Notes: a model not told the origin generated them from the sequence alone. A DNA stretch of 41,247 bases from an uncultured Gammaproteobacteria bacterium (GCA_964434235.1 CAYSUN010000004.1:1-41247); one strand, 5' to 3'. Positions 5,450 through 30,041 are shown, counted from the first letter of the stretch. A program made the numbers and translations.

Positions 5450-5493
5450 ACCCCAAACTATAACGTTATAAAACGTTAAGTTCAGGGCAAGCC
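5450..5493 (-). repeat. Copy R1 of a ~44-nt structured repeat family (accccaaactataacgttataaaacgttaagttcagggcaagcc; the reverse orientation of the copies at 26459 and 29999)
   Basis: Near-identical to 29999..30041 after reverse complementation. It contains the palindrome tataacgttata. Confidence 0.7.
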
Positions 5494-5510
5494 TTTTTAC
5501 TTAATAGAAT

Positions 5511-5657
5511 ATGCCAAAAAGAACATATCAACCAAATACTAGAAAAAAACTTAAAAAACACGGTTTTCGAGCAAGAATGGAAACAAAAGATGGTCGAGCA
5601 GTTTTGAAAAGAAGAAGAGACAAAGGTCGTGTTAGCTTAAGTTCTTCAGATAGATAA
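5511..5657 (+). CDS. rpmH: 50S ribosomal protein L34
   Basis: 48 aa, [44 protein letters not shown], matches the L34 consensus. It is too short to appear in the ORF track. Confidence 0.9.
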
Positions 5658-5679
5658 AGATTTACTATCATTTATATAA

Positions 5680-5715
5680 AAAAGAAGTTATAATTATGTT
5701 GTAACTTCTTTTTTT
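5680..5715 (+). terminator. Rho-independent terminator after rpmH (aagaagtta…taacttctt followed by ttttttt)
   Basis: Read directly. Confidence 0.55.
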
Positions 5716-6402
5716 ATGTTTCAAAAACTGACTATTATAATTCCTTGTTATAATGAGGAAAAGACAATTGAGAAGGTTGTAAGTGAAATAGAAAATGTAA
5801 ATTTACCTTTAAACTTGAATAAGGAAGTTATTATTGTTGATGACGGCTCTGGACCAAGAACAAGGGAAATATTAAAAAATTTAGAACATAAACATAAAAT
5901 TATTTATTTACCAAGGAATTTTGGCAAAGGCTATGCAGTTCGCCAAGGCATAAAAGAGGCAACTGGCGATTTGATTTTGATTCAAGATGCTGACTTAGAA
6001 TATGATGTTAATGATTATCCAAAATTATTAGAACCAATGATAAATAATGGATCAGAAATTGTTTATGGGTCTAGATTTTTGCAATTTAACGAAAGATCCA
6101 AGTATTATTGGGGAGTGAAAGGTTTAACAATTTTATTAAATTTACTTTTTAGAGCCAAATTAACAGATAGTGCAACTTGCTACAAACTATTCAGAAGTGA
6201 ACATTTAAAGAATTTAGATTTACAGTGCCAAAGGTTTGAATTTTGTCCAGAAGTTACAACCAAATTACTTAAAAAAGGTTTAAAAATAGTAGAAGTTCCA
6301 ATTAACTATTATCCAAGATCAGTTGTTCAAGGAAAAAAAATTAAAATTAAGGATGGGCTGGAAGCAATGTGGACAATTATAAAATATAGATTTATTAATT
6401 AG
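5716..6402 (+). CDS. GT2-family glycosyltransferase, polyprenol-phosphate sugar synthase (DPM1/GtrB-like)
   Basis: IIIPCYNEE…IIVDDGSGP…DADL.Y is the classic GT-A DXD architecture. Confidence 0.85.
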   Translation: MFQKLTIIIPCYNEEKTIEKVVSEIENVNLPLNLNKEVIIVDDGSGPRTREILKNLEHKHKIIYLPRNFGKGYAVRQGIKEATGDLILIQDADLEYDVNDYPKLLEPMINNGSEIVYGSRFLQFNERSKYYWGVKGLTILLNLLFRAKLTDSATCYKLFRSEHLKNLDLQCQRFEFCPEVTTKLLKKGLKIVEVPINYYPRSVVQGKKIKIKDGLEAMWTIIKYRFIN

Positions 6403-6411
6403 TTTAAAACA

Positions 6412-7989
6412 ATGAAAAATTCTTTCAAATATTTAGGAGTTTTTTTATTTTTCTTGGCAATTTTTTTAGTGCCACGATTTTTTATTGAAGGTTTTGTGGG
6501 CGTAGACCCTTATTATCACGCTGAACATAGTCGATTAATGCTAGAAAACAATAATTTAACTTATGTAGCTGATTGGGTGGATTTCCATTTTTTAAGTTAT
6601 GCCCCAGTTGATTTATGGTGGGGGTATCATTTAATTCAGGTTTTGTTTTTATTTTTATTTGAGTCTATTTTTGGTTTAAAAATTTTAGCGTCTATAGCTT
6701 CGGCGTTAATTTTTGTACTTGTTTATTTTATTTTAAACAAATTTAAGATAAAAAAACCATTTTTATGGAGTGCCTTTGCTTTGTTTGCCAGCGCAACTAA
6801 TTTCTCGAGGATTTTTTTTGAACGGCCGTTTGTTTTGTCTATTGTTATGACTCTTTTTATTTTTTATTTTTTATATAAACGCAAGAATTTAGCTTTGTTT
6901 TTATGTTTGATTATTTATACTTTGATTTATGAATTAGCGATTATTGCCTTTTTTTGGGTTTTTGTTTTTATGTTGGTGGATTACTTTTACGAAAGAAAAA
7001 TATATTTAAGATCATTGATCGCAACACTTGGTGGTTTTGTGGCGGGCATCTTGGTCCATCCAAATATGCAGGAATATATAAATGGAATATATTTAGTTCT
7101 AATAAAAATTTGGATAATCGCTTGGCAGGTTAGTCCAGAGCTTAATCAGGGAGTTGAGATTAGGGTTCACGGTTTGGAATCATTTTTATTAAGCAACTTT
7201 TTATTTTTATTGTTTTATATTTTAGCTTTAAGTGGTTTTGGGTTCTTGTTGTCTTTGCGAAAAGCTAGTAAAAAAACAGTTATTTTGTTTATTATAAGTT
7301 TTGTTTGGTGTGTGGTGGCCTTTTTTATCCCAAGGGGAACTGAGTATTGGGTACCTTTTGGCATTTTGTTTATTGCTGTGGTTTGGCAAACCTTTATGAA
7401 AACAAAAGAGTCTAGAATTATTGCTAAAAAAATTCACAACATAGAACTTTTCCCATTTAAATACTTGTTAATTTTTTTAATAATTTTTGTTTTACTGGCG
7501 AATGCTTTTGTGGTCATGAAAACCCTTCGAAATATAAGTTATAATAATATTAATGAAGATAGTAATAGTCAGGCAGTTGATAATTGGCTAATTGAAAATA
7601 CTGAGCAAGGTTCAAGGATTTTCACTTCTAATTGGTCACTTTTTCCAAGATTGTTTTATGGCAATCAGCACAATAAATTTATTACTGCTTATGACCCAGC
7701 TCTTTTTTATGAATTTGATCCAACTTTATTTTATACGTGGGCAAATATTGCTAATCACCAAATGTTTTTAACGGAAAAATTTACTAAAGTAAAAAAGATC
7801 GCCGATCTATCTAGTGAAGAAAATGTTAAAAACATAAAAAATGCACTTTTGGCAAGATTACAAACCCCGACCATTGTCATTCATAAAGCGCAACCAGAAT
7901 TAAAAAAGTTTTTTGAAGAAAACATGACAGAATATTTTAAATTAAGTTTTGAAAATGAGCTATATACAGTTTTTACCTATGCAAGATAA
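6412..7989 (+). CDS. Polytopic membrane protein, putative GT-C-type (ArnT/PMT-like) polyprenol-phosphate-dependent glycosyltransferase
   Basis: About 12 predicted TM helices, a first loop containing VDPYYHAE, and a C-terminal soluble domain. Its position next to a DPM1-like GT2 supports the call. Confidence 0.4.
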   Translation: MKNSFKYLGVFLFFLAIFLVPRFFIEGFVGVDPYYHAEHSRLMLENNNLTYVADWVDFHFLSYAPVDLWWGYHLIQVLFLFLFESIFGLKILASIASALIFVLVYFILNKFKIKKPFLWSAFALFASATNFSRIFFERPFVLSIVMTLFIFYFLYKRKNLALFLCLIIYTLIYELAIIAFFWVFVFMLVDYFYERKIYLRSLIATLGGFVAGILVHPNMQEYINGIYLVLIKIWIIAWQVSPELNQGVEIRVHGLESFLLSNFLFLLFYILALSGFGFLLSLRKASKKTVILFIISFVWCVVAFFIPRGTEYWVPFGILFIAVVWQTFMKTKESRIIAKKIHNIELFPFKYLLIFLIIFVLLANAFVVMKTLRNISYNNINEDSNSQAVDNWLIENTEQGSRIFTSNWSLFPRLFYGNQHNKFITAYDPALFYEFDPTLFYTWANIANHQMFLTEKFTKVKKIADLSSEENVKNIKNALLARLQTPTIVIHKAQPELKKFFEENMTEYFKLSFENELYTVFTYAR

Positions 7990-8701
7990 TCAACAAAATT
8001 TAGAAATTGTAGCTGATAATGAGAAGTTTAATGATTGGATGTATTCAGAAATAAAGCCTTTTATTAAGGGGGATATTTTGGAGGTTGGAAGTGGTCTGGG
8101 TACCTTTTCTCGAAGGATTATCCAAGATTTTTTAGATAAAGCAGAAAAAATCATGCTCAGTGATATTGATCCTCGTTATCTAAAAAATCTTGAAAGTACT
8201 TTTCAAAACCAAAAAGTCAAAGTCCGGAAAATAGATCTTGCTAAAGCAGAAGATTTTACTCAGTTAATTGAAACTGGTCAAAAATTCGAAACTATAATTT
8301 GTTTAAATGTACTGGAACACGTTAAAGATGACGTTTTAGCTTTGGATAATTTGCATAAAGTTTTAAGGCCCAATGGCCAAATTATTTTATTGGTTCCAGC
8401 CCACAAATTTTTGTTCAATTCTTTGGACGAAGCCGTTTTGCATTTTCGACGTTACACCAAAGAAGAATTATTTTCTAAAGTTGGTCAAACAAAATTACAA
8501 ATAAGTAATATTTTTCATTTTAATATAATCGCTATTTTGGGTTGGTTTATTAACGGCACTATTTTTAAGAAAAGAGTTCTTTCGGTTCCCGCTTTTTCTT
8601 TTTTCAATAAGTTAGTACCTTTTTTCCGTTTTGTTGAAAGAAAGATTTTATTCAGATTTACTGGGCTGTCGATAATTGCTATTTTGAAAAATAGAGCGTA
8701 A
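7949..8701 (+). CDS. Class I SAM-dependent methyltransferase
   Basis: ILEVGSGLGTFS (motif I) and LNVLEHVKDD. The start may be the ATG at 7979. Confidence 0.75.
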   Translation: MKMSYIQFLPMQDNQQNLEIVADNEKFNDWMYSEIKPFIKGDILEVGSGLGTFSRRIIQDFLDKAEKIMLSDIDPRYLKNLESTFQNQKVKVRKIDLAKAEDFTQLIETGQKFETIICLNVLEHVKDDVLALDNLHKVLRPNGQIILLVPAHKFLFNSLDEAVLHFRRYTKEELFSKVGQTKLQISNIFHFNIIAILGWFINGTIFKKRVLSVPAFSFFNKLVPFFRFVERKILFRFTGLSIIAILKNRA

Positions 8702-8800
8702 TCTTCTATACTATAGTTGTAATCATTTTATTTAGATTTATCTTAGCTTGAAGTTGCTCGATAAACTTATTTTTACTCTACTTCCTAATTTAAGACACTT

Positions 8801-9157
8801 ATGTTGCCAAAAGAAAATAGAATAACCAAAAAGAAAGAGTTTGATTCTTTTTTTAGTACAGAATTTAAAAAAAGGAATGGTTTGAATCAATCTGGTCAGT
8901 TTATGATTTTAAAAACGTATAAAAATAATTTTGGACGAGCTCGTTTTGGTTTTATTGTAAATAATAAAATTGATAAAAATGCAGTTGTGCGAAATAAAAT
9001 TAAAAGACAACTTCGCAAGGCGATTCAAGATATTTTTTCAAACTTAAAACAGTTCAATGATTGTCTTATTATTGTTAAACCACAAATTAAAAATAAAGAT
9101 TTTGTTGATATTAAAAAAGAAGTCGAAATATTATTTAAAAGAACACATTTATTATGA
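8801..9157 (+). CDS. rnpA: Ribonuclease P protein component
   Basis: 118 aa, basic, with LPKENRITKKKEF…RARFGFIV…NAVVRNKIKRQLR. Confidence 0.85.
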   Translation: MLPKENRITKKKEFDSFFSTEFKKRNGLNQSGQFMILKTYKNNFGRARFGFIVNNKIDKNAVVRNKIKRQLRKAIQDIFSNLKQFNDCLIIVKPQIKNKDFVDIKKEVEILFKRTHLL

Positions 9158-9417
9158 AATTATATAACTACGTAAAATATTTACCACGAATAATTGTTTT
9201 GAAAATGATCAAAATTTATCAGGCCACGCTTTCATTTGATCACGGGCCAATGAAAGATAAATTTCCTGGTGGATATTGTCGTTATAAACCGACTTGTAGT
9301 GAGTATGGTTATCAAGCGATTGAAAAATACGGGCTAATTCGTGGAGGATTTAAAGCGGTTTGGCGAGTTTTGAGATGTAACCCTTGGTCAAGGGGTGGTC
9401 ATGATCCATTAAAATAA
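9154..9417 (+). CDS. yidD: Membrane protein insertion efficiency factor YidD
   Basis: CRYKPTCSEYGYQAIEKYG…RCNPWSRGGHDP. Overlaps rnpA by 4 nt. Confidence 0.9.
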   Translation: MKLYNYVKYLPRIIVLKMIKIYQATLSFDHGPMKDKFPGGYCRYKPTCSEYGYQAIEKYGLIRGGFKAVWRVLRCNPWSRGGHDPLK

Positions 9418-9440
9418 TCAAGTTATTAGGTTATAAATAA

Positions 9441-9470
9441 AACCCCCACTTTCATTGAAAGTAGGGGTTT
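9441..9470. terminator. Bidirectional hairpin (cccccactttc-attg-gaaagtagggg) between the convergent yidD and flotillin genes
   Basis: Read directly. On the minus-strand RNA the internal mismatch becomes a G·U pair, and the hairpin is followed by a U-rich tract. Confidence 0.5.
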
Positions 9471-9477
9471 GTGTTAG

Positions 9478-11091
9478 TTAATTGGCAATTGTTTCTGCTT
9501 CGGAAGTTAATTCTTCCTCGGCCGGAGTGGGTGGAGTTTCTTCTGGTTGTTGGTCTTCAGAAACGCCAGCTAGGACATCTTGTGAAATGCCAAGTTTGTC
9601 AAGTAGCCCGTCTACGTTAAGACCAGTTTCCTTCAGTTTGTTGAATAAACCGAAGAGCAGTGCGGGACCATTGCCAGCAAAGCGAGAAACTGCCTTGCCG
9701 TCACCTTGGTCAATAACTACTACCTTGTCGATTGCACTCATCGGCTTGGCAATCTCAGCCATAACCGGAGCCATAGACTCAATCACTGAAGGCATTGCCT
9801 CAAGGATCATCAGCAGACGGCCGGATTGGTCCAGCTTGGCCATAGCCTCAGCCTTCTTGTCGATTGCCATAGCCTCAGCTAGACCCTTAGCCTGAATACC
9901 AGCTGCTTCTGCTAGCTTGATTGCTCGGATCTTGTCACCCTCGGCTTCACCGATTGCTTTGATCTTGGCAGCCTCGCCCGCACCCTCGAGTTGTCGCTTC
10001 ATCTTCTCGCCTTCGGCAAGATTGATTTCTGATTGTTTTTGTCCTTCAGATGCTTTGATGAGCGCACGTCGTTCACCATCAGCCACAGCTTCAGCAGCGT
10101 CAGCGGCCTTTTGGGCAGGAACCACCTTATTGGCGATTTCTTCTTTTTCCGCCACGGCGATCTTTTGAATTTGTACATCCACCAAGGCCTTTTGGTGAGC
10201 TTCCTCAACCTTGGTTTCCTCAACAATTACGCCTTGACGAGCAACTGCATCAGCCTTCGGGCCAGCTTGGAGCGTACGTGAAGTTTCTGCGTTAACTTCA
10301 GCTTGATACGTTTGTTTTTTTACATCGCGGTCACGTTCAGCGTTCGCAATCTGAGCCTCGTTTTCAGCCTGAACAACTTTTGCGGATCTTTGAGCTTCGG
10401 CAACTTTGATGGCACTATCTCGTTCAGCCTCAGCATTACCAATATTACCAAATTTTTCTTGCTGAGCAACTTCAACCTTAGCTTTGTTGATAGCCTCAGC
10501 GGCTGCTCTTTTTCCGATTGCGTCAATATAGCCGGACTCATCTGTAATATCTCGAATATTTACGTTAATAAGCTTGAGACCAATTTTTTTGAGTTCAACT
10601 TCAACGTTTTCCTGGATCTTTTCTTCAAAGGTTTTACGATCAGCGTTAATTTCCACAATTCCCATAGTTGCGATAGTGGCACGCATTTGTCCGAAAATGA
10701 TTTCAGCGGATTGCCTTGTAATTTCCTTTTCACCCATACTTAGGAGTCTTTCTGCTGCAGCCTGCATGATTGCTGGTTCAGTTGAAATACCAAGTGTAAA
10801 TTGGGCAGGAACGTTGACACGAATGTTTTCTTTCGATAGAGCAGACTTCAGGTCAATATCAATTGACAATGGCTGTAAAGAAAGATATTTGTAGTTTTGT
10901 AATATTGGCCAGATAAAGGCTGCACCACCGTGGATGCATTTGGCCGATTGTCCCTTGCCCGTCCTACCACAAATGACTAGAATCTTATCTGGAGGACATC
11001 GGCGGTAGCGAGTGATTGCCACGATAAGAATTGAAAAAAGCATCACACCAGCAATAACTTCTAGAATCAGGAACCAAGGAATACTGGGCAT
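9478..11091 (-). CDS. Flotillin-like SPFH/band-7 protein (FloT/YqiK-type) with a long Ala/Glu-rich coiled coil
   Basis: N-terminal TM helix, an SPFH core, then EA-rich repeats. The locus GC (~50%) is far above the flanks. Confidence 0.85.
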   Translation of the reverse strand: MPSIPWFLILEVIAGVMLFSILIVAITRYRRCPPDKILVICGRTGKGQSAKCIHGGAAFIWPILQNYKYLSLQPLSIDIDLKSALSKENIRVNVPAQFTLGISTEPAIMQAAAERLLSMGEKEITRQSAEIIFGQMRATIATMGIVEINADRKTFEEKIQENVEVELKKIGLKLINVNIRDITDESGYIDAIGKRAAAEAINKAKVEVAQQEKFGNIGNAEAERDSAIKVAEAQRSAKVVQAENEAQIANAERDRDVKKQTYQAEVNAETSRTLQAGPKADAVARQGVIVEETKVEEAHQKALVDVQIQKIAVAEKEEIANKVVPAQKAADAAEAVADGERRALIKASEGQKQSEINLAEGEKMKRQLEGAGEAAKIKAIGEAEGDKIRAIKLAEAAGIQAKGLAEAMAIDKKAEAMAKLDQSGRLLMILEAMPSVIESMAPVMAEIAKPMSAIDKVVVIDQGDGKAVSRFAGNGPALLFGLFNKLKETGLNVDGLLDKLGISQDVLAGVSEDQQPEETPPTPAEEELTSEAETIAN

Positions 11092-11111
11092 TTTTTCCTC
11101 CTTAGGAAAGG

Positions 11112-11747
11112 TTAGTTGGCCCGACTGACAATCAATTGATTGTTTTGGATTTCGTCAACTCTTACATTTTCTCCTTTGACAATGTCAGTTGTTTCAGTGG
11201 TAATAGCATCAATATCCATTAGTTTGCCTTGAATCACTAAACTAATTTTTCCAGGTTTTGTTTTGTTTGCCGAAATTCTGATTAAAACTTGACCTTGAGT
11301 ACCAATGGCATTTTTGAGGTTAATTGTTCCGTCGCTACTAAGAGATGAAAGTGTTTTGAATACAAAAAGCATAATACTGGCCATCGCAATGCCGACAAGA
11401 ATGCCAAGAAGAGTGGAAACTAAAGTTGAATAGCCTAGATCTAAAAAACCCAAAGCTGACCAGGAAAATCCTAGAAAAAAAGCAACCATACTTCTGACAG
11501 TAAACCATTGTCCAATGTGAAATTCATGAGACTCAGAGTCTGAGTCAGTTTCACTACTAGTTGAATCGTCTCCAATGTCGTGGTCTACACCATGATCAAA
11601 ATCATGGCCTGAATCAATGTCAGAGTCATGATCCCCAAGTCCAAACAAAAGCATAAGTGTTTGGCAAATGAAAATTGTTGTAAAGAATACAGCAATTCCT
11701 AAAAAAAATTGTTCAGCACCAGAAAGAGAAACCCACCAATTTTCCAT
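11112..11747 (-). CDS. NfeD/YqiJ-like membrane protein, partner of flotillin
   Basis: GGGAGG lies 8 nt before the ATG at MENWW. It has TM helices, an acidic His/Asp-rich linker (DHDSDIDSGHDFDHGVDHD) and a C-terminal OB-like soluble domain. Confidence 0.7.
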   Translation of the reverse strand: MENWWVSLSGAEQFFLGIAVFFTTIFICQTLMLLFGLGDHDSDIDSGHDFDHGVDHDIGDDSTSSETDSDSESHEFHIGQWFTVRSMVAFFLGFSWSALGFLDLGYSTLVSTLLGILVGIAMASIMLFVFKTLSSLSSDGTINLKNAIGTQGQVLIRISANKTKPGKISLVIQGKLMDIDAITTETTDIVKGENVRVDEIQNNQLIVSRAN

Positions 11748-11987
11748 AATAGACACCTCCCTTATGAGTGAAATAAACATAAAATTGTTTAGGAACTTTT
11801 CTGCACCTAGCAGAATGGAATACTTTAACATTAGAGATAGAAATTTGTCAATAGCAGAAAGTGGTTAAAAATATAATTATAAAATATTATAATATTTTAG
11901 TTGTTTGTTTTGTATTTTTTTGTTTATTGTTACTAAATTTAGATAAAATATTGTAATTTTACAAAAGTGTGCTACAATTGTGTCGTT

Positions 11988-13418
11988 ATGAGTTTAAATA
12001 AAAAAATTGCCCAAAACACAATAATACATTTATCTGGCAAGATGATCAGTCTTGTTTTAGGTTTAGTTTCTATTGCGATGATGACTCGATATTTAGGGCA
12101 AACAGGTTTTGGTTACTATATTACAGTTACAGCTTTTCTGCAGTTTTTTGGGATTTTAGTAGATTTTGGCTTAACTTTAACAACCGTTCAAATGATTTCT
12201 GGACCGGACGTTAATATTACCAAAACAATGAATTCAATTATTTCTTTTCGTTTGATCAGTGCGATCATTTTTCTTGGATTAGCACCACTTGTAGTTTGGT
12301 TTTTCCCTTATGCTTTAATAATTAAGATTGGCGTTCTTATTTGTACATTATCATTTTTTTGTATAACTGTAATTCAAACTTTAACTGGAGTATTTCAGCA
12401 AAAATTTAAAATGTTTGAATTAACACTTGGTGAAGTTGTTGGTCGATTAGTTTTGGTTGCTATGGTTTTTGTTAGTATTTTATTGAACCAAGGAATTTTG
12501 GGAATTTTTGTAGCTTTAACTTGTGGCAGTGTTATAAATTTATTGATTGTTTTTCTTTTTTCTCGAAAATATATTCAATGGAAGTGGGAAGTTGATTTAG
12601 TAATTTGGAAAGAGCTTTTATCTAGGACTTGGCCAATTGCTTTATCTATTTCTTTTAATCTTTTGTATTTAAGAATGGATACAATTATTATGTCTTTAAC
12701 CAGAACTCAGGCAGAGGTTGGTTTATATGGCGCTACGTATCGTGTGATAGACATTTTAACGATGTTACCAGCTGTGTTTATGGGTATGGTTTTACCAGTA
12801 GCAACAAAATATTATTTAGATAAGAATAAAAATGAATTAAAAGCTTTGTTGCAAAAATCTTTTGATGCACTAATAATTTTTGCAGTACCAATTGTTTTGG
12901 GAACTTTGATTATTGCAAAAAAAATTATGGTTTTTGTGGCTGGAGATGACTTTGCAATTTCTGGAGAAATTTTGAAAGTTTTAATTTTGGCGATAGGTTC
13001 AATTTTTGTAACGAGTTTATTTGGCTATGCCGTTGTAGCGATCAATAAACAAAAAGTTATGATGTGGGGTTATTTAACGGCGGCAGGTTTAACGCTAGTG
13101 GGCTATTTGTATTTTATTCCTAAGTTTGGTTATTGGGGAGCTGCTTGGATGACTGTTTTTAGTGAGGTTTTTATAATGGTTTGGACTGCAATTTTAGTTT
13201 ATAAAACGATTAAGTTTTTCCCGAACTTAAAAACATTTTTGAAAACTATTCCGGCTGGTTTAATTATGATGGGACTTTTGTATTATGTTCAAGGTTGGCA
13301 TGTTTTATTATTACTTTTAATTGCTGGAGTTGTATATTTTGGAATTTTGTATTTACTTGGTGGAATAAAAAAGCAAACGCTTGAACAGCTTACGAGCCAG
13401 GACAAGAGAATAATTTAG
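11988..13418 (+). CDS. Polysaccharide/oligosaccharide flippase (Wzx/MOP superfamily)
   Basis: About 12-14 TM helices with the typical Wzx-family layout. The ATG at 11988 is preferred over the in-frame GTG at 11967. Confidence 0.7.
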   Translation: MSLNKKIAQNTIIHLSGKMISLVLGLVSIAMMTRYLGQTGFGYYITVTAFLQFFGILVDFGLTLTTVQMISGPDVNITKTMNSIISFRLISAIIFLGLAPLVVWFFPYALIIKIGVLICTLSFFCITVIQTLTGVFQQKFKMFELTLGEVVGRLVLVAMVFVSILLNQGILGIFVALTCGSVINLLIVFLFSRKYIQWKWEVDLVIWKELLSRTWPIALSISFNLLYLRMDTIIMSLTRTQAEVGLYGATYRVIDILTMLPAVFMGMVLPVATKYYLDKNKNELKALLQKSFDALIIFAVPIVLGTLIIAKKIMVFVAGDDFAISGEILKVLILAIGSIFVTSLFGYAVVAINKQKVMMWGYLTAAGLTLVGYLYFIPKFGYWGAAWMTVFSEVFIMVWTAILVYKTIKFFPNLKTFLKTIPAGLIMMGLLYYVQGWHVLLLLLIAGVVYFGILYLLGGIKKQTLEQLTSQDKRII

Positions 13419-13458
13419 TTTGTAAAAATATTTTTAGTATTAAAATTTTCATTAAATT

Positions 13459-13764
13459 ATGAAAAAAATTGCTTTATTATTTATTATCATATTAGTTTTA
13501 GTCGGGAGTTTGGTTTTTATTTATAGTCAAAAAAATAATTCAAAAAATAGTGCGGAATGTGGTAGCGAATATATTTATGCTGGTGTGAAACATAGCCAAG
13601 AGTGTGCTTGCTCAAAGAAAAAATCAACGCATGATTTATTTGGCGGAACTATGGTTTATTGTGATGGACTTTGTGGCGAGTGTACGTGTTTTGAAAGCCA
13701 TTTCAACGCAGAGACGAATAGTTACGGTGAAAAATTGCCAGTCAGTTGTCCATTAGAATTGTAG
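13459..13764 (+). CDS. Small secreted or membrane-anchored Cys-rich protein (8 Cys), hypothetical
   Basis: N-terminal hydrophobic segment. CGSEY…CAC…CDGLCGECTC. Confidence 0.4.
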   Translation: MKKIALLFIIILVLVGSLVFIYSQKNNSKNSAECGSEYIYAGVKHSQECACSKKKSTHDLFGGTMVYCDGLCGECTCFESHFNAETNSYGEKLPVSCPLEL

Positions 13765-13768
13765 CTTT

Positions 13769-15139: not shown

Positions 15140-15164
15140 TTTTTACTGAAATTGCTGGCAAAGC

Positions 15165-15251: not shown

Positions 15252-15382
15252 CTTTGCCAGTTTAATAAAAGGACTACAAGTGATTATTGACATTTATTAT
15301 TTATTGGATTAATATACAAAATCGTTTAAGTTTAATGTTGGTTAAGTGCTCAAAAACAGATTTTTGCGAAGGAGGAACTTAG

Positions 15383-15898: not shown

Positions 15899-15907
15899 TT
15901 ATAGCAT

Positions 15908-20774: not shown

Positions 20775-20845
20775 CAGAGTAACTAAAGTTATCCTTTTTA
20801 TCTTATATATCCCATTTATCTTATTACAAATAAAAACAAAAAAAT

Positions 20846-22264
20846 ATGTTTACCAAAAGTAAATATAAGATTATAGCCAGTGTCTTGTTGCTAATTTTTA
20901 CTTTAACTGGTTGTACTAAAGGTGGAACGACTGAAGCAAAAAGTGCTTATAAAGCTGAAGTTTTGAATTGGTGGAGTGTTTGGGATGATTATTCAGACGT
21001 TATTCCTTTGATTGATGCTTATCGAGCGCAACACCCAAATGTTCGAGTTGATTATAGAAAACTTCGTTATGAAGAATACGAAAAAGAATTAATAAACGCG
21101 CTAGCTGAAGATCGTGGACCGGATGTTTTTTCAATTCACAATACTTGGATGAAAAGATATGTAAATAAATTGTTGCCAGCTCCAGCCAGTGTTTCTTTGC
21201 CTATTAAATACACTACTGGTGGTATAAAAAAAGAAGAGGTCGTTGAATTTAGGACGAACAATTTACCATCTCCAGCGGTGGTTAGAAAAAACTTTTTAGA
21301 TGTAGTATCACCTGATGTTATTATGCTTGATGAAACTGGTGCAGAAGATACTTGGCGAGAAAAAGTTTGGGGCTTGCCAATGAGTATGGATACTTTGGTT
21401 ATGTTTTATAATAAAGATATTTTAAATAACGCAGGTATTGTTGAACCAGCGAAAAGTTGGACTGAATTTCAGGATCATGTTAAACGAATTACCAAGATTA
21501 GTAGTGAAACTGGTGAAATATTATTATCTGGCGGTGCAATTGGCACAGCTGATAACGTTGAAAGAAGTTTTGATATTTTGTCTTTATTAATGATGCAGAA
21601 TTTGACACCAATGACCAACCAAGCTGGCTACGCAACTTTTACAGAAGCTCCAAAAAATATTACTAATATTCAAACTCCTCCTGCCATTGGAGCAATTGAT
21701 TTTTATGTTCAGTTTGCTTCACCTTTGCACGAGATTTATACTTGGAACAATCAAATGCCAAATTCCATCGACGCTTTTATTGATGGTAAGGTTGCATATA
21801 TTTTTGGTTATTCATATTACAAAGATCGAATAATGGCCGAAGCGCCACAGTTAAATTGGAGTATTGCTTCAATGCCACAAGTTGGGGATCAACAAAAAGT
21901 TAATTATGCTAGTTATTGGGTACAAGGAGTTTCCAAAAAATCAAAAGTTCCTCAGTATGCTTGGGATTTTGTTAATTTTATAACGGCTGAAGCTAATGTT
22001 CCTGTTTATCTAAATAAAGCTGGAACAACAACTGCTCTTCGTTCAACAAAATTAATTAACGAACATCTAGCCAATGAAGCTTTAGCGGTTCAGGCTGAAC
22101 AGTTGTTAACAGCCAAAAGTTGGTATCGAGGGCAAAGTCCTTTGGCGGCCGAAGATATTTTCGCGACATTAATTAATAGTGTATTACAGGCAGATGTCGA
22201 AGTGGAGGATGCCCTAAAAAATTCAGCTAATCAAATAAATTACTCTATAAATAATTCTTTATGA
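20846..22264 (+). CDS. Lipoprotein, extracellular solute-binding protein (ABC-type sugar SBP-like)
   Basis: Lipobox LTGC. SBP family-1-like length and composition. Confidence 0.6.
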   Translation: MFTKSKYKIIASVLLLIFTLTGCTKGGTTEAKSAYKAEVLNWWSVWDDYSDVIPLIDAYRAQHPNVRVDYRKLRYEEYEKELINALAEDRGPDVFSIHNTWMKRYVNKLLPAPASVSLPIKYTTGGIKKEEVVEFRTNNLPSPAVVRKNFLDVVSPDVIMLDETGAEDTWREKVWGLPMSMDTLVMFYNKDILNNAGIVEPAKSWTEFQDHVKRITKISSETGEILLSGGAIGTADNVERSFDILSLLMMQNLTPMTNQAGYATFTEAPKNITNIQTPPAIGAIDFYVQFASPLHEIYTWNNQMPNSIDAFIDGKVAYIFGYSYYKDRIMAEAPQLNWSIASMPQVGDQQKVNYASYWVQGVSKKSKVPQYAWDFVNFITAEANVPVYLNKAGTTTALRSTKLINEHLANEALAVQAEQLLTAKSWYRGQSPLAAEDIFATLINSVLQADVEVEDALKNSANQINYSINNSL

Positions 22265-22626
22265 GAAAATATTTAATTATCACGATCGTAATCTTTTGGG
22301 GTGTACTTGGGGTGGCACAAAGCACTTTTGCTTTTCCTTCGATTGTGCCTGTAAATTGTCAAGGTAATGCAGAAGTTTCAGTGTGTAACTTAAGTGAAGT
22401 AGAATCAATGATCGGAACTGTTGCTCAAATTGTTTTGGGCTTGGCTGGTTCTGTTACATTGGCAGTATTTGTTGTGGCTGGTATTATGTATACAGCTTCT
22501 GGCGGAAATAAAAATATAATCGGCAAAGCAACGGACATGTTGAAAAATGCTTTTTTGGGATTAGTACTTATATTTTTAGCTGGAGTTATTGTAAAAACTT
22601 TATTAAGTGTCTTAAGTAAGTCTTAG
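22261..22626 (+). CDS. VirB2/TrbC-like (T4SS-type) pilin family protein, paralog 1 of 9
   Basis: Signal peptide, then a hydrophobic helix, the loop YTASGGNKN…, and a second hydrophobic helix. Confidence 0.5.
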   Translation: MRKYLIITIVIFWGVLGVAQSTFAFPSIVPVNCQGNAEVSVCNLSEVESMIGTVAQIVLGLAGSVTLAVFVVAGIMYTASGGNKNIIGKATDMLKNAFLGLVLIFLAGVIVKTLLSVLSKS

Positions 22627-22629
22627 CTT

Positions 22630-22992
22630 TTGTATATGAAAAAAATATTAATAATTACATTTTTAAGTCTATTGATTTTACCAACAATAGTGTTTGCGCA
22701 AGGAGCCGTGTCACAGGCAAAAGCGAAAATTACTTCTGTTATGCCAGGGGAACTAGTGAAAGATGCAGATGCAAATATAATTTTAGGAAATGCAATTAGT
22801 AAGGGGTTGGGGATAATCGGCAGTGTGGCTTTGGTTATTTTTATTGCAAGTGGTATAATATGGATGACCTCAGCTGGGAATGAGAAAAGAGTCAAGCTGG
22901 CTGAGCAAAGTTTAATTTGGGCAGCCTTGGGGTTGTTTGTTATATTTTTCAGTTATATTTTTGTTAATAATGTTATTGGAAAGTTGGGTTAA
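22630..22992 (+). CDS. VirB2/TrbC-like pilin paralog 2
   Basis: …IASGIIWMTSAGNEKRVKLAEQ… flanked by two hydrophobic helices. Confidence 0.5.
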   Translation: MYMKKILIITFLSLLILPTIVFAQGAVSQAKAKITSVMPGELVKDADANIILGNAISKGLGIIGSVALVIFIASGIIWMTSAGNEKRVKLAEQSLIWAALGLFVIFFSYIFVNNVIGKLG

Positions 22993-23038
22993 AAAAAATT
23001 AGAAATTTAAATATAAAAAATAAATAATTTTTACGAAC

Positions 23039-23437
23039 ATGAAGTTAAACACAAACAAAATCAAAGTGTTTGCAGCTTTATTCTTAGCTGTTTTTGCACT
23101 TTCGTTTCTAGCGCTTCCAGTTTTAGCACAAAACAATGATCCATTTGGAGTTACTGCTGTTGGTGGTAATTTAGGACTTGGTAATAAAGATTTAAGAGAA
23201 ACAATTGGTTCTATTATCAAGGCTGCTTTAGGCTTTCTTGGTGTAGTTGCTGTGGTTATTGTTTTGATCGGTGGTTTCAAATACATGACAGCTGGTGGTA
23301 GTGATGAAAAAGTTCAAGATGCTAGAAAATACATTGTTTCTGGTATTATTGGTCTTGCTATTGTTTTGAGCGCTTATGCTATTACAACCTTTGTTGTAAG
23401 TAATTTAATTAGTGCAACAAACGCTAATACTTTGTAA
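23039..23437 (+). CDS. VirB2/TrbC-like pilin paralog 3
   Basis: …LIGGFKYMTAGGSDEKVQDARKY…. Confidence 0.5.
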   Translation: MKLNTNKIKVFAALFLAVFALSFLALPVLAQNNDPFGVTAVGGNLGLGNKDLRETIGSIIKAALGFLGVVAVVIVLIGGFKYMTAGGSDEKVQDARKYIVSGIIGLAIVLSAYAITTFVVSNLISATNANTL

Positions 23438-23517
23438 TTTTTTTGAAGTGGGTAGTTTTACTGCCCCTTCTCATTAGCCAATAATTGTTAATAAAGTTTT
23501 GTTGGTTGATGAGAAGT

Positions 23518-23907
23518 ATGAAAAAGATTATTCCTTTTTTGATGGTAATTTTTATATTTTCTGTACTTGCTATTAGCGTACAGCCAGTTTTGGCTGGGGA
23601 CGCAAGCACAACCAGTTTTAAGGATGGACTTGAAAAAACAAACATTGAAGCAAAGTTAGATACTACTGGCACCGTAGAATCAAAGATTGGTAAAATTGCT
23701 GGTATTATTTTTGGCTTTGTTAGTATTGTTTTTCTGATTATGATTGTTTATGGTGGCATTATTTGGATGACTGCTTCAGGAACTGAAGCTAATGTCAAAA
23801 AAGCTAGGGCAACTTTGGTTCATGCTGCAATTGGTTTATTTGTGACGATGATCTCTTATCAAGTTGCTTCTTATGTAATAACGAAAATTGCAGAAACAAC
23901 TTCCTAA
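23518..23907 (+). CDS. VirB2/TrbC-like pilin paralog 4
   Basis: …VYGGIIWMTASGTEANVKKARAT… The start is taken at MKKIIPF. Confidence 0.5.
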   Translation: MKKIIPFLMVIFIFSVLAISVQPVLAGDASTTSFKDGLEKTNIEAKLDTTGTVESKIGKIAGIIFGFVSIVFLIMIVYGGIIWMTASGTEANVKKARATLVHAAIGLFVTMISYQVASYVITKIAETTS

Positions 23908-23913
23908 TTAAAT

Positions 23914-24306
23914 ATGAAAAATGTTTTTTTATTGTTAGTAGTTATAATGTTAATAGTTTTTAACTTTAGTCTTGCACTTGAGCCTGTTTTGGCTGATGGT
24001 GCAACTGACAAAGCTCAAGCTGGTTTAAAAGCCTCAGCTGATACAGCTGGGTTTTCTACAGCCAAAGCTGAACCAGCTGAAGTTATTGGAAAAGCCTTGA
24101 ACATTTTAATTTCTGTTTTAGGAATTATTTTTGTTATTTTGGTTGTTTATGGTGGTGTAACTTGGATGACCGCTACTGGTAATGCTGATCAAGTTAAAAA
24201 AGCTAGATCCATGATTATAGAAGGTGCACTTGGCATGGCTGTTACTTTGGCTTCCTATTCTTTGGCTTCTTATGTAGTAGAAAAAGCATCCTCAGCCACA
24301 CAATAG
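23914..24306 (+). CDS. VirB2/TrbC-like pilin paralog 5
   Basis: …VYGGVTWMTATGNADQVKKARSM…. Confidence 0.5.
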   Translation: MKNVFLLLVVIMLIVFNFSLALEPVLADGATDKAQAGLKASADTAGFSTAKAEPAEVIGKALNILISVLGIIFVILVVYGGVTWMTATGNADQVKKARSMIIEGALGMAVTLASYSLASYVVEKASSATQ

Positions 24307-24348
24307 TAATTTATCATTTAAACACTTAATCACTAAAACAAGAAATCT

Positions 24349-24393
24349 CCGACGTAAAGTACGGAGTCCGTATAGCCTATGGCTCATCGGACA
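24349..24393 (+). repeat. 45-nt hairpin-rich insertion element, copy 1 (tccgacgtaaagtacggag tccgtatagcc-tat-ggctcatcggac)
   Basis: Inserted into a repeat unit that is uninterrupted at 27826..27880. An inverted copy lies at 29425..29469. Confidence 0.75.
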
Positions 24394-24512
24394 ATAAAAC
24401 ATAAAAACAAGAAAACAAGGAACACAGAACACAGAGCAACCACTTAAGTAGGCTTGCACTTACTACTTAACACTTAATACTTTTTTCACTATTTACTTCT
24501 AACTTCTATATT

Positions 24513-24908
24513 ATGTATAATCTAATTTACAACCAAAACTTTAGACGGATTGCTGTAATTGTTGTGATGATTTGTATGGGATTTATTTTTTCAGCTAGTT
24601 ATGGTTTGGCTAGTCCAACAGAAGAATTAAAAAAAGTTGGGACTGGTATGAATATTACAGCGCCAAAACCAATGCCAGAAGTTATCGGACAAATTATCAA
24701 TATTATTTTAACAATATCTGGAATTATAATGGTGATTTTAGTAGTTTGGGGAGGATTTCAGTGGATGACAGCTGGTGGGAATGAAGATCAGGTCAAGAAA
24801 GCCAAGCAATTATTAATTAACGCCGTTATGGGGTTAGCTATAACTTTATCAGCTTATGCAATTGCCTATTTTGCTGTTGAACAATTAGACAAGGCAACAA
24901 CTACTTAG
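24513..24908 (+). CDS. VirB2/TrbC-like pilin paralog 6
   Basis: …VWGGFQWMTAGGNEDQVKKAKQLLINA…. Confidence 0.55.
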   Translation: MYNLIYNQNFRRIAVIVVMICMGFIFSASYGLASPTEELKKVGTGMNITAPKPMPEVIGQIINIILTISGIIMVILVVWGGFQWMTAGGNEDQVKKAKQLLINAVMGLAITLSAYAIAYFAVEQLDKATTT

Positions 24909-24934
24909 AAGAAATAAATAACTAAATAAATATT

Positions 24935-25339
24935 ATGAAAAAGATATTTGCGATTTTGGCAATTTTAAGCATAATGTTAGTTCCAATGTTAGTTTTTGCT
25001 CAGGGTACGACACCGACAGCTGTAGATTATACAAAGGGTGATCCCAAGGCTGCTTTAACTGATTTAAGGGGTAAATCAGGATATTCAGACAAGTCTGACA
25101 ATTTGGTTGGTGTTATTGGTAATGTCATAAAAATTTTATTAACAGCAGTGGGTATTATAGTAGTAGTTCTTGTTGTTTATGCTGGATTTTTGTGGATGAC
25201 AGCTGGTGGCAATGAAGATCAAGTTAAAAAAGCTAAACAATGGTTAATTAACGCAGTGATTGGCTTAGCCTTGATTATGGCAGCTTATGCAATCTCTGAT
25301 TTCGCTATAACTAATTTAACGACAGCCACAAAAGCCTAA
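24935..25339 (+). CDS. VirB2/TrbC-like pilin paralog 7
   Basis: …VYAGFLWMTAGGNEDQVKKAKQWLINAVIGLALIMAAYAIS…. Confidence 0.55.
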   Translation: MKKIFAILAILSIMLVPMLVFAQGTTPTAVDYTKGDPKAALTDLRGKSGYSDKSDNLVGVIGNVIKILLTAVGIIVVVLVVYAGFLWMTAGGNEDQVKKAKQWLINAVIGLALIMAAYAISDFAITNLTTATKA

Positions 25340-25364
25340 CTTAATTAATATCAGAAAAATAGGT

Positions 25365-25763
25365 ATGAAAAAATTAATTCCAGCTTTAACATTGTTTCTA
25401 GTTTTGTTTATGCCAATTGCTGTTGGAGCGCAGGATTTTTTAGGCGCTGATTACCAGGGTCAACAAACAACTGCTTTTGCTGATTTTAAAACAAAATCAG
25501 GCATGGATGGAAAAGAAAGCAGCTTAGTTGCGATTATAGGAAATGTTGTAAGAATAGTTCTAGTTTTGGTCGGAATAATTGTACTTGTGATTATTGTCTA
25601 TGCTGGTTTTTTGTGGATGACTGCTGGTGGTAATGAAGATCAAGTTAAAAAAGCTAAACAATGGTTAATTAACGCGGTAGTAGGTTTGGCCTTAATTATG
25701 GCAGCTTATGCAATTTCAAGTTTTGTAGTTACTAACTTGTCTTCAGCGACAACGATTAATTGA
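25365..25763 (+). CDS. VirB2/TrbC-like pilin paralog 8
   Basis: Its C-terminal ~80 aa are nearly identical to paralogs 7 and 9, while the N-terminal mature region differs. Confidence 0.55.
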   Translation: MKKLIPALTLFLVLFMPIAVGAQDFLGADYQGQQTTAFADFKTKSGMDGKESSLVAIIGNVVRIVLVLVGIIVLVIIVYAGFLWMTAGGNEDQVKKAKQWLINAVVGLALIMAAYAISSFVVTNLSSATTIN

Positions 25764-25792
25764 AGATTAATAACTAATATATAATAAAAATT

Positions 25793-26191
25793 ATGAAAAA
25801 ACTAATTCCAATTTTGGCACTTTTTTCTTTGCTATTATTCCCTGTGGCCACAATGGCGCAAGACATCTTACAATTAGGTTTGGATGATCAGACGGTTGAA
25901 GAAAATATGGATTATTTTGCTTCAGACTTCGGACAGGATACAGGTGGATCTGATTTGGTTGGGATAATCGGAAATATAGTACGAATCGTTTTGACTTTAT
26001 TGGGCGTTGTTGTACTTGTTATTATTGTTTATGCAGGTTTTTTGTGGATGACAGCTGGTGGTAATGAAGATCAAGTTAAGAAAGCTAAACAATGGCTAAT
26101 TAATGCGATAATAGGTTTAGCCTTAATTTTGGCGGCTTATGCAATTTCAAGTTTTGTAGTAACAAACCTTTCTTCTGCGACAACAATGTAA
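25793..26191 (+). CDS. VirB2/TrbC-like pilin paralog 9
   Basis: Same conserved C-terminal core with a divergent N-terminal region. Confidence 0.55.
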   Translation: MKKLIPILALFSLLLFPVATMAQDILQLGLDDQTVEENMDYFASDFGQDTGGSDLVGIIGNIVRIVLTLLGVVVLVIIVYAGFLWMTAGGNEDQVKKAKQWLINAIIGLALILAAYAISSFVVTNLSSATTM

Positions 26192-26210
26192 AATTATTAT
26201 CAAATAAAAA

Positions 26211-26246
26211 AACTGCCCTCCAAGCATGGATAAGGGCAGTTTTTTT
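26211..26246 (+). terminator. Rho-independent terminator after the pilin array (ctgccct…agggcag followed by ttttttt)
   Basis: Read directly. Confidence 0.6.
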
Positions 26247-26387
26247 GTTGTTCCGTAATCAAATTTGATTCGGAACGCTATCTCTATATTAAAGAGCTAC
26301 TTGGTTGTGAAAGTGAGTTCATTTGTTATGCGAATTAACTGAGAGATACTATAGCGAATGTTCGATTGGTAAGTAGTATTTTTTTTT

Positions 26388-26506
26388 AGCTGCCGGCAGG
26401 CACCCGCGCGGTAGCGCATAATAGCCCCCTTCCGATACAAGAATAAATTACAGGGAGAGCTTGCCACGTACTTAACGAAGTTATAGTTCGTGGGGTTGGG
26501 GGTGGG
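26388..26506 (+). repeat. GC-rich structured element B (a copy of element A) carrying a 33-nt insertion of the R-family repeat at 26459..26491
   Basis: Removing gcttgccacgtacttaacgaagttatagttcgt restores cagggaga|ggggttgggggtggg, as in element A. Confidence 0.6.
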
Positions 26507-28909: not shown

Positions 28910-28987
28910 AAACACGTGTCCCCCGAAGTTTCAACACAGGTAGAAGAATACAAAAAAGCAAAAAAGCAAGAAAACAAGAAAGCAAAT

Positions 28988-29356
28988 ATGAATGATTATC
29001 AAAAAAGATTAAAAGGATTAATGGACGAGTATGTTCATTATGTCTATAAATTGACAAAAAAATTTCCGCGGGAAGAAATATATGGCTTAGTTTCACAGTT
29101 AAGAAGATCTGCAATTTCCATAATACTAAATTATATTGAAGGATACGCAAGAAGAAGAACGCTAGTTAGGTTTAATATGTTAGAAACGTCGTATGGTTCA
29201 TTTCAAGAAACTAAATATATAGTGCAATTTTCTTTAATTGAGGGTTATATTTCAAAAGAAGATTATTTAAATATAGAATTATTAGAAAAAGAAATTGGTG
29301 CTATGCTGTGGACCGAATTAACAAAATTAGAAGGCAGTATTAAAGCTGTAAAGTAA
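28988..29356 (+). CDS. Four-helix-bundle protein ('23S rRNA intervening-sequence protein' family)
   Basis: …EEIYGLVSQLRRSAISIILNYIEGYARR… is the family signature. About 122 aa from the ATG at 28988. Confidence 0.75.
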   Translation: MNDYQKRLKGLMDEYVHYVYKLTKKFPREEIYGLVSQLRRSAISIILNYIEGYARRRTLVRFNMLETSYGSFQETKYIVQFSLIEGYISKEDYLNIELLEKEIGAMLWTELTKLEGSIKAVK

Positions 29357-29424
29357 TAATATTTATTTGGCTCTTTGTTTTTTAATCGTGTATTTCTCTT
29401 TTAGTGGCTTGTGTTTTCTTGTCC

Positions 29425-29469
29425 GATGAGCCATGGGCTATACGGACTCCGTACTTTACGTCGGAGATT
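29425..29469 (-). repeat. 45-nt hairpin-rich insertion element, copy 2 (inverted orientation, 1 mismatch located in a hairpin loop)
   Basis: Its reverse complement equals 24349..24393 except tat→cat in the loop of the agcc/ggct stem. Confidence 0.75.
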
Positions 29470-29498
29470 TATTGATTTTTTGTTTTATTGAAGTCTCT

Positions 29499-29996
29499 AT
29501 GTCTACCAAAAAAGTAATATTGGGCATTGATCCAGGCTATGGCATTACTGGTTATGGTGTTGTTAGTGTTGAAGGATCAAAAATAACTTGCCTTGATTAC
29601 GGTGTTATTACTACTCGGGCTGGGGATGATTTTGAACTTCGTCTCAAAGATTTGAATAAAGATTTGAAGTTAATCATTAAAAAATATAAACCAGACTTGG
29701 TTGGGGTAGAAGATCTTTTCTTTGCTAAAAATGTTAAAACTGCCATGAAGGTCAGTCACGCCCGTGGCGTAATTATTTTAACTGCAGTTCAGGCTAATGT
29801 GCCGATTGTTGAATTTACTCCCGTTCAAGTTAAGCAGGCGATTTCAGGCTATGGTAAGGCCGAGAAAGCACAAGTTCAGCAAATGGTAAAAACATTCTTG
29901 AACCTGAAACAAATACCAAAACCAGATGATGCGGCTGATGCCTTGGCTGTGGCAGTTTGTGCGGCTAATTCTTTTAAATTAAAAAGTAAAAATTAA
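29499..29996 (+). CDS. ruvC: Crossover junction endodeoxyribonuclease RuvC
   Basis: ILGIDPGYGITGYGVV… The catalytic D and E residues are conserved. The start is taken at MSTKK. Confidence 0.9.
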   Translation: MSTKKVILGIDPGYGITGYGVVSVEGSKITCLDYGVITTRAGDDFELRLKDLNKDLKLIIKKYKPDLVGVEDLFFAKNVKTAMKVSHARGVIILTAVQANVPIVEFTPVQVKQAISGYGKAEKAQVQQMVKTFLNLKQIPKPDDAADALAVAVCAANSFKLKSKN

Positions 29997-29998
29997 AA

Positions 29999-30041
29999 GG
30001 CTTGCCCTGAACTTAACGTCTTATAGCGTTATAGTTCTGGG
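29999..30041 (+). repeat. Copy R3 of the ~44-nt structured repeat (ggcttgccctgaacttaacgtcttatagcgttatagttctggg)
   Basis: Matches the reverse complement of 5450..5493. Confidence 0.7.

Follow-up and report, generated by a model that had tools for sequence, protein, structure and literature searches.

Genomes of the candidate phyla radiation (CPR, or Patescibacteria) count as highly streamlined, and what non-coding DNA they contain has hardly been explored. Here we describe a small hairpin-forming repeat that occurs three times in a stretch of 41,247 nucleotides (GCA_964434235.1, CAYSUN010000004.1:1-41247; uncultured Gammaproteobacteria bacterium), which was analysed over its whole length and is called the window below. 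The window is AT-rich (~32% GC), with a GC-skew switch near 4 kb, and carries dnaN and dnaA on the minus strand, rpmH, a 3-kb block, rnpA and yidD, an array of type IV secretion system (T4SS) pilin paralogues, a PGI-like gene, yebC, an open reading frame (ORF) of the 23S_rRNA_IVP/Avd-like kind, ruvC and a PKD/7TM gene. The best named relatives of its RuvC are in Candidatus Falkowbacteria and the "Parcubacteria group" (68-70% identity), which on sequence relationship places the window organism in the CPR/Patescibacteria.

The original prediction was of a structured repeat family with three copies, one of them inside another repeat, that might be a protein-binding palindrome, an RNA motif or a miniature mobile element. 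In this paper we examine the fold of the repeat in copies gathered from genomes and metagenomes, its insertion into a second repeat, its placement in related genomes and the occurrence of candidate transposases in the same clade. We find selection for the hairpin fold on one of the two strands. Within genomes the copies multiply into lineage-specific subfamilies; they insert between genes, pointing either way, for instance within an operon and within a second structured repeat, and they come and go between relatives.

Hairpin copies in the window

A 19-nt pattern, GCTTGCCNNGNACTTAACG, matches the window three times with 0 mismatches, against 0.19 matches expected by chance from shuffles allowing up to three mismatches, and all three predicted copies were re-located in this way (Table 1). 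For the three copies, the predicted folds of the GCTTGCC strand and of its complement are -19.6/-14.1, -22.5/-13.3 and -20.1/-9.9 kcal/mol.

Table 1. Positions of the hairpin copies, of the repeat that hosts one of them and of the promoter match near copy 1.
Feature	Position	Strand	Sequence	Remarks
Hairpin copy 1	5450..5493	-	GGCTTGCCCTGAACTTAACGTTTTATAACGTTATAGTTTGGGGT	long-loop subfamily
Hairpin copy 2	26458/9..26493	+	AGCTTGCCACGTACTTAACGAAGTTATAGTTCGTGG	short-loop subfamily, GAA loop
Hairpin copy 3	29999..30041	+	GGCTTGCCCTGAACTTAACGTCTTATAGCGTTATAGTTCTGGG	long-loop subfamily
Element B copy 1	18355..18440	+		uninterrupted comparator ("empty site"); three-hairpin predicted fold, -50.4 kcal/mol
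Element B copy 2	26389..26505	+		GC-rich structured repeat, host of hairpin copy 2
Sigma-70-type promoter match	5344..5372	+	TTGACA-17-TATAAT	12/12 match, upstream of hairpin copy 1; context, outside the repeat

Copy 1 is antisense to rpmH, with 17 nt between its 5' end and the rpmH ATG (5511), and it is placed between a consensus promoter and the start of that gene. Because the promoter lies upstream of it, the complement of copy 1 is probably within the rpmH leader, and the rpmH 5' untranslated region would carry it if this promoter is used. On its own strand copy 1 is flanked by AAAAAG (5493-5498) and TAAAAG (5445-5450). Copy 3 begins, in sense orientation, 2 nt past the ruvC stop codon (29994-29996), and its left flank, TAAAAG (29994-29999), includes that codon.

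Anatomy and covariation

The unit of ~42 nt consists of a near-invariant single-stranded 5' tail, an imperfect stem of ~13 bp, a bulged T and a variable loop. The tail is GCTTG, rarely GCCTG (the variable position is T in 37/39 and C in 2/39), and the conserved foot of the stem pairs CC..G.ACT with AGT.C..GG. The bulged T stands in the 3' arm directly 5' of AGT in 40/40 sequences. The upper stem covaries freely, the loop is 3, 5, 10 or 11 nt long, and in four independent copies an extra arm, CCTGCC...GGCAGG, is placed exactly at the bulged T and forms a three-way junction; the spacing between the arms ranges from 3 to >30 nt.

Among 28 distinct copies, 94.8% of stem cells pair, three pairs show double changes, and a covariation score as high as that observed was reached in 0/500 shuffles; sliding the 3' partner out of register destroys the pairing. 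The 3' outer arm lay outside the search pattern, so its complementarity counts as independent evidence. The 40 distinct sequences matched by a covariance model (described below) gave a similar picture, with 93.6% of cells paired and five pairs with double changes, and one inner pair is U-A in 30 of these, C-G in 10 and unpaired in 0. Compensated inner stems include ACTTAAC/GTTATAGT, ACTCAAC/GTTGTAGT, ACTCAATC/GATTGTAGT, ACTCAATT/AATTGTAGT, ACTCAAAC/GTTTGTAGT and ACTCG/CGAGTAGT. The outer-stem variants quoted in the original prediction are correct, and the covariation claimed from three copies is real when more are aligned. Non-Watson-Crick pairs are 13 G.T against 2 A.C, and the top strand has the more stable fold in 28 of 36 copies (p = 0.003), which together argue that selection acts on the fold of one strand, be it single-stranded DNA or RNA, and not on a duplex dyad.

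This anatomy bears on the idea that a dimeric regulator binds the repeat as an operator palindrome centred on TATAACGTTATA, or that a bidirectional promoter element is centred there. Copy 1 does lie in a divergent promoter region and has a perfect 12-nt palindrome with TATAAC on both strands. The perfect palindrome (c)tataacgttata(g), which had been taken as the centre of the repeat, is however confined to copy 1; it has one mismatch in copy 3 and is missing in copy 2, and family-wide this position is a variable loop, the copy 1 region being the loop of one subfamily. Elsewhere there are unrelated loops of 3-11 nt. The arms covary without keeping a half-site, the bulged T and G.T pairs break the dyad, and the variable arm spacing adds to the case against a protein-binding palindrome. 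A promoter of the form TTGCCN...TATAGT was rejected because the spacing varies from 15 to 23 nt, and the scans for promoters and terminators found no promoter inside the copies, the 12/12 match lying upstream, and no terminator at them. The alignment of 40 distinct copies contradicts a duplex operator, and we regard this explanation as very improbable.

An attC-like recombination site of an integron would also be a folded single strand with a bulged T. The consensus of attC boxes is RYYYAAC/GTTRRRY with an extrahelical base, and the inner stem ACTTAAC/GTTA(T)AGT resembles the R''/R' boxes. These boxes are misplaced in the inner stem, outside of which stand a further conserved stem and the 5' tail, and they covary away from the consensus, for example to ACTCAATC/GATTGTAGT and ACTCG/CGAGTAGT. 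There are no cassette arrays, no integrase was found among the window proteins scanned, and the copies lie in both orientations between housekeeping genes. An attC site is contradicted by the anatomy and has the smallest chance of any explanation weighed here.

Insertion into element B

Element B is a GC-rich repeat of ~86 nt. Its first copy closely precedes a gene for a TrmB-like regulator (18454-19236), and its second lies after the T4SS-pilin array and is convergent on the PGI-like gene. Compared with the uninterrupted sequence at 18355-18440, the second copy is split between CAGGGAG and GGGGTTGGGGGTGGG by a 34-nt insert (26458-26491), and this insert is hairpin copy 2. The earlier claim that one copy is inserted inside another repeat is therefore confirmed. 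The site is in the third of element B's hairpins, on the 3' arm, and the insertion disrupts that structure. Unlike the subfamily flanks of other copies, described below, the flanks at this insertion show neither the constant 5' sequence nor its recurrence at the 3' side. Element B has no Rfam match and is missing from the syntenic relatives L035 and L037.

Size and distribution of the family

An exact-pattern scan of species-representative genomes yielded 2 copies, both in one Candidatus Kuenenbacteria metagenome-assembled genome (MAG), and a scan of Joint Genome Institute (JGI) metagenomes yielded 30 more loci, so that 32 loci were found outside the window in total. The metagenome loci include Ga0265594 contigs, which represent the window's own population, and a hairpin-rich group of Ga02334xx contigs. 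The covariance model, R1, gave 43 strong matches with 40 distinct sequences and recovered copies that were missed by the pattern. Density in carriers is ~1 copy per 6-14 kb (three in 41 kb in the window, and up to five in 12 kb at other loci).

Any one genome has identical or near-identical copies, with a loop specific to that genome; the Ga0265594 contigs, for example, hold six copies with the loop of copy 3, four of which are identical over 49 nt. Between carrier genomes, shared proteins are only ~61-64% identical. The GatA of the hairpin-rich group again has its best named matches, at 74% identity, in Falkowbacteria and Kuenenbacteria, and the family as found here occurs in a CPR clade near these two lineages. 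No copies were found in the IMG/VR viral contigs, and a phage origin was rejected on this ground. Rfam scans at gathering thresholds, covering the window and 20 loci, detected tRNAs and a single RNase P RNA but nothing else; permissive scans of the surroundings of copies 2 and 3 yielded sub-threshold noise alone.

Placement, orientation and flanks

Placement was scored for 46 copies using a simple ORF-based gene call. All but two (44/46) are intergenic, and there is no preferred orientation to the neighbouring genes: of the upstream genes, 20 are co-directional with the hairpin and 18 divergent from it, and of the downstream genes, 16 are co-directional and 24 convergent. The proximity to gene starts or ends that had been remarked upon is seen for copies 1 and 3, but it reflects tight intergenic spacing and not a fixed position. 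Genes next to hairpins are housekeeping genes, among them GatC/GatA, S6, T2SS-F and a response regulator, and an all-against-all clustering of ORFs found no recurrent neighbours except common glycosyltransferases and T4SS pilins.

Comparison of relatives shows gain or loss at defined sites. In L031/L042, two tandem copies lie antisense in a gatC-gatA gap of 202 nt; in a relative with 74% identical GatA, gatC and gatA overlap by 4 nt and there are 0 copies in 21 kb. Two syntenic relatives of the window (RuvC 77% and 74% identical) have the same gene order with 0 copies in 20 kb, are likewise without element B and without the IVP ORF, and have an ordinary hairpin-plus-T-run terminator at the site where the window has element B and copy 2. 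Clusters (L007, L008, L009, L019, L020, L031/L042) are all direct tandems of 2-3 units on the same strand.

Some copies adjoin genes for stable RNAs. In L002 (5927-6048) the first three nucleotides of a tRNA-Tyr gene are also part of a hairpin on that strand, so that the precursor would carry the hairpin right at the RNase P cleavage site; one copy in L003 follows a tRNA, and one in L028 is 29 nt from the RNase P RNA. A rival reading is a cis-acting structured RNA, in which a conserved RNA-binding protein or RNase would read the GCUUG tail, the foot and the bulged U of a processing, stability or docking hairpin in mRNAs and in the precursors of stable RNAs. The G.U pairs that favour one strand, the conservation of tail and bulged U in divergent genomes, the optional arm at one fixed position (as in many structured RNAs), the co-oriented copies at the L002 and L003 tRNA genes and the sense copy directly after the ruvC stop all agree with this. 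The RNA motif is weakened by the unbiased orientation to flanking genes, by the antisense copies between gatC and gatA and probably in the rpmH leader, and by the syntenic relatives that do without the element; its flanks are lineage-specific with no conserved promoter, Rfam holds no match, and one copy disrupts another structure. We consider it a possible but unlikely explanation.

On both sides the copies have short direct repeats that do not vary within a subfamily: the window group and one Kuenenbacteria copy have TAAAAG, the Ga02334xx group has RTTAACY or ACCTT, and the L001 group has ..ATT/TTATATT. Many copies are also embedded in AT-rich tandem tracts with a 7-8-nt period. Since the flanks are constant per subfamily, they may belong to the unit, represent target-site duplications or preferred targets, or result from insertion into such tracts. 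Degenerate AT-rich tracts with an 8-nt period occur in intergenic regions of the window at 27622-27914, 24298-24438 and 29409-29490, the last being an inverted copy (88% over 82 nt), with units such as AACAAGAA, ATCAATAA and AACATAAA. In the related contigs L018, L023 and L030, such tracts and a GC-rich palindrome, GCCTGCCGGCAGGC, flank hairpins. The overall picture is of tracts, palindrome and hairpins in a mosaic of small repeats, like that of the bacterial interspersed mosaic elements (BIMEs).

With respect to GC skew, ~22 of 23 copies in the Ga02334xx group have the GCTTGCC strand on the C-rich strand, whereas orientation is mixed (5:4) in the window group; skew is confounded with gene strand. 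The biased group, together with the conservation of foot and tail across lineages and the high density of copies in small genomes, speaks for a chromosomal DNA site recruited by the host, at which a nucleoid protein, a topoisomerase or a replication protein would bind or act (a role proposed for BIMEs), or for a replication-strand signal. The mixed orientation in the window's own genome group and the confounding of skew speak against such a site, as do the three regions of ~20 kb in which related genomes are without copies and the covarying stems with variable spacing, which disfavour a duplex binding site. A host-recruited site is in our view improbable.

Y1 transposases in the clade

Enzymes of the Y1 (HUH) tyrosine transposase type were sought by BLAST and phmmer with TnpA and RayT query sequences; a crude regular-expression search for motifs of the REP-associated tyrosine transposases (RAYTs), the partners of repetitive extragenic palindromes (REPs), had found nothing. 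The hairpin-rich contig L020 carries two minimal IS200-like elements of 568 bp (2834-3401 and 8265-8832) that are 100% identical and have an intact Y1 transposase (Y1_Tnp, E = 2e-34; NCBIfam transpos_IS200, E = 2e-35). One of the two is 149 nt from a hairpin cluster. Their end hairpins are CACCGAA..TTCGGTG and ACCTCG..CGAGGT, and they share with the family only the hexamer GCTTGC, which in the IS200-like ends is at the apex (AGCTTGC), a lead that was noticed post hoc. The two elements also bracket a gene for a protein of 1507 aa with fn3 domains.

A RAYT-like fragment occurs in the hairpin-bearing Kuenenbacteria MAG at L041:2-286 (region 1-289), where it is cut by the contig end; that end is itself a 34-nt perfect palindrome and probably an assembly artefact. 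The homologues of the fragment are short remnants only, with no hairpins nearby. In L040, which is hairpin-free, the RAYT-like sequence at 15107-15672 is a pseudogene, broken by a single in-frame stop and a single frameshift. Both L041 and L040 sequences match NCBIfam NF047646 (REP-associated tyrosine transposase, REP_Tyr_transpos) best, below its cut-off. Y1 enzymes thus occur in the clade, yet the unlike ends of the IS200 elements and the remnant state of the RAYT genes leave any link to the hairpins conjectural.

Other features of the window

Four near-consensus DnaA boxes lie between dnaA and dnaN (3368-3591) and two more upstream of dnaA (5105-5154). The boxes and the GC-skew minimum near 4 kb point to a replication origin in this region, with copy 1 at the region's rpmH edge. 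The genes rpmH and rnpA, which are usually neighbours, are ~3 kb apart, and the block between them (5716-8701) codes for a GT2 glycosyltransferase, a 525-aa protein without a Pfam match and a methyltransferase. The pilin array (22261-26191) consists of ~nine paralogous genes of ~130 aa each (TrbC/VirB2-like) and is kept in the syntenic relatives.

A weak match to the covariance model at 1758-1804 on the minus strand (E = 0.08) has a fold unlike that of the family and was not counted as a fourth copy. It lies in the tRNA-Gly/tRNA-Leu spacer (1690-1860, minus strand), where the last 12 nt of tRNA-Gly (tctcccgctcca) recur ~100 nt downstream and are followed by a perfect 20-bp palindrome, CTCCAGATGTAGAGACGCAA...TTGCGTCTCTACATCTGGAG. 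This 12-nt repeat and palindrome could be a remnant attachment site.

Two small 23S_rRNA_IVP/Avd-like ORFs (PF05635) are inserted in the window, at 28916-29356 between yebC and ruvC and at 38708-39109 between the genes for a penicillin-binding protein (PBP) and SMC, and both are missing from those sites in the syntenic relatives. They were not found near hairpins elsewhere, and a link to the hairpins was rejected. Kuenenbacteria L041 has a PDDEXK_3 ORF separating gatC from gatA, and another IVP ORF placed between a holin-like gene and the QueH gene.

Discussion

Selection of the fold on one strand, multiplication within genomes, intergenic and nested insertion and gain or loss between relatives are properties of REPs and of miniature inverted-repeat transposable elements (MITEs). 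With a probability of roughly 0.55, we read the element as a dispersed, non-coding, intergenic family of REP/MITE-like hairpin repeats and not as a gene-regulatory signal. Among the options of the original prediction, the miniature mobile or dispersed element fits best, given that hairpin, covariation and nested insertion were all borne out.

A single-stranded tail, a GC-rich foot and an extrahelical T are features of the kind that HUH/Y1 transposases read on folded single strands of DNA, as in the ends of IS608 and in REP-RAYT complexes. By analogy, a protein would recognise the hairpin as single-stranded DNA through its foot, bulged T and tail. The most likely candidate would be a Y1 transposase of the IS200/IS605-RAYT type, which may cut and re-insert the hairpin. 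A stable 3' hairpin behind ruvC, a structured leader of rpmH and other such consequences for nearby transcripts would then be by-products.

Several observations weigh against this interpretation. No transposase was shown to flank the hairpins, to bind them or to co-vary with them, and the RAYT-like genes seen are a contig-end fragment, a pseudogene or short remnants, so that no intact, hairpin-flanked RAYT was found in these incomplete assemblies; the stems of the resident IS200-like ends differ from the family stem. There is no unambiguous target-site duplication, the flank repeats being constant within a subfamily and not varying with the site. Clusters are tandem and direct, not inverted pairs of the kind found in REPINs (REP doublets forming hairpins), and the orientation bias with respect to GC skew is ~22:1 in one genome group and mixed in the window's group. 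Finally, foot and tail are conserved across genomes with ~61-64% protein identity, which fits a conserved host function equally well.

A related possibility, which we hold only tentatively, is that the hairpin is the cognate site of a conserved single-strand-specific protein of the Falkowbacteria/Kuenenbacteria clade, and that the two form a distinct hairpin-protein system with a role in the host. The protein could be a domesticated Y1/HUH enzyme or an RNA-binding factor. Such a system would have its own rules, with a GCTTG tail, the bulged T as a checkpoint, tandem growth on the same strand, insertion into hairpins and docking of a second GC-rich palindrome, and it would be kept in streamlined genomes of ~1 Mb through a benefit to the host.

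As dispersed REP/MITE-like repeats, hairpins at the density seen here, which split an operon, abut a tRNA and probably stand in the rpmH leader, suggest that these small genomes tolerate or use selfish structured repeats. The covariance model R1 provides a handle for annotating such repeats, for explaining breaks in CPR contigs and for seeking the protein that reads them. Should this protein be a Y1 transposase, biology of the REP/RAYT type would be extended to a very distant bacterial lineage. Among the papers listed by full-text searches that paired RAYT, REPIN or miniature inverted-repeat terms with CPR names, none contained both, and other searches found only a compost-community preprint that names both topics in passing, and papers on TIGR-Tas.

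Comparison with known systems

Three known kinds of element were rejected on structure. An intrinsic terminator resembles copy 3 in having a GC-footed hairpin right after a stop codon, but the family has no T-tract, about half of the copies are in the wrong orientation, and the relatives use an ordinary hairpin plus T-run at the corresponding site. CRISPR arrays are excluded by anatomy, the copies being solitary or in tandems of 2-3 units without spacers, and no cas or tas genes turned up in Pfam scans of the window and of hairpin-adjacent ORFs. TIGR-Tas arrays, which are reported in CPR, combine box C/D-like motifs with a Tas gene (PMC12045711), an architecture unlike that of the family.

The REP/RAYT systems of Proteobacteria offer many likenesses. 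A REP is a short imperfect palindrome (35-45 nt; 20-45 nt was taken as the test range, and the family unit is ~42 nt) with a conserved single-stranded 5' tail. REPs have many intergenic copies, often hard by gene ends, and form genome-specific subfamilies, clusters and BIME-like mosaics, as the hairpins do, and RAYT-like genes are present in the hairpin clade. The REP tail is however GTAG or GTGG and the family tail GCTTG, analogous and not the same motif. REPs form inverted doublets (REPINs/BIMEs), whereas the clusters of the family are all same-strand tandems; an invariant bulged T and an optional third arm set the family apart from REPs, as does the conservation of foot and tail across genomes as divergent as these carriers.

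The end hairpins of IS200/IS605 elements and of the palindrome-associated transposable elements (PATEs) derived from them share with the family a hairpin of single-stranded DNA whose foot is GC-rich and whose 3' arm has an extrahelical T, as well as a short, conserved, "guide-like" 5' tail, for which the IS608 ends are the basis of comparison, and an intact IS200-like element is present in a hairpin-rich genome. Unlike these, the family has a single hairpin and not a pair of left and right ends, and the resident IS200-like ends of L020 have unrelated stems with only GCTTGC in common, at the hairpin apex. There is also no conserved tetranucleotide target 5' of the copies; the 5' flanks (TAAAAG, RTTAACY, ..CTT) are subfamily-specific and recur at the 3' side, and a replication-strand bias is not uniform across the family.

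MITEs and the small interspersed repeats of other bacteria (Correia/NEMIS, RUP, BOX, ERIC, RPE, the mosaics of neisserial intergenic mosaic elements (NIMEs) with dRS3, and the heptamer tracts of the cyanobacterial short tandemly repeated repetitive (STRR) sequences) resemble the family in several ways: they do not code for protein, occur in many copies, can form hairpins and differ by insertion from one relative to the next. Nesting in other repeats and embedding in tandem tracts of 7-8 nt are further points in common. For MITEs, the hairpin arms could count as terminal inverted repeats, and the flank repeats of 5-7 nt resemble target-site duplications, without variation between sites. The family is much shorter than typical MITEs, has no parent insertion sequence with matching terminal inverted repeats among those found and shows no clear target-site duplication, and its compensatory changes show that the fold itself is selected and not just inverted termini. 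Membership in any single known repeat family was thus not shown, and the best reading is that the hairpins are a new family within known kinds, to which REP/RAYT repeats, IS200/IS605-derived hairpins and small MITE-like mosaics of the BIME/NIME type come closest.

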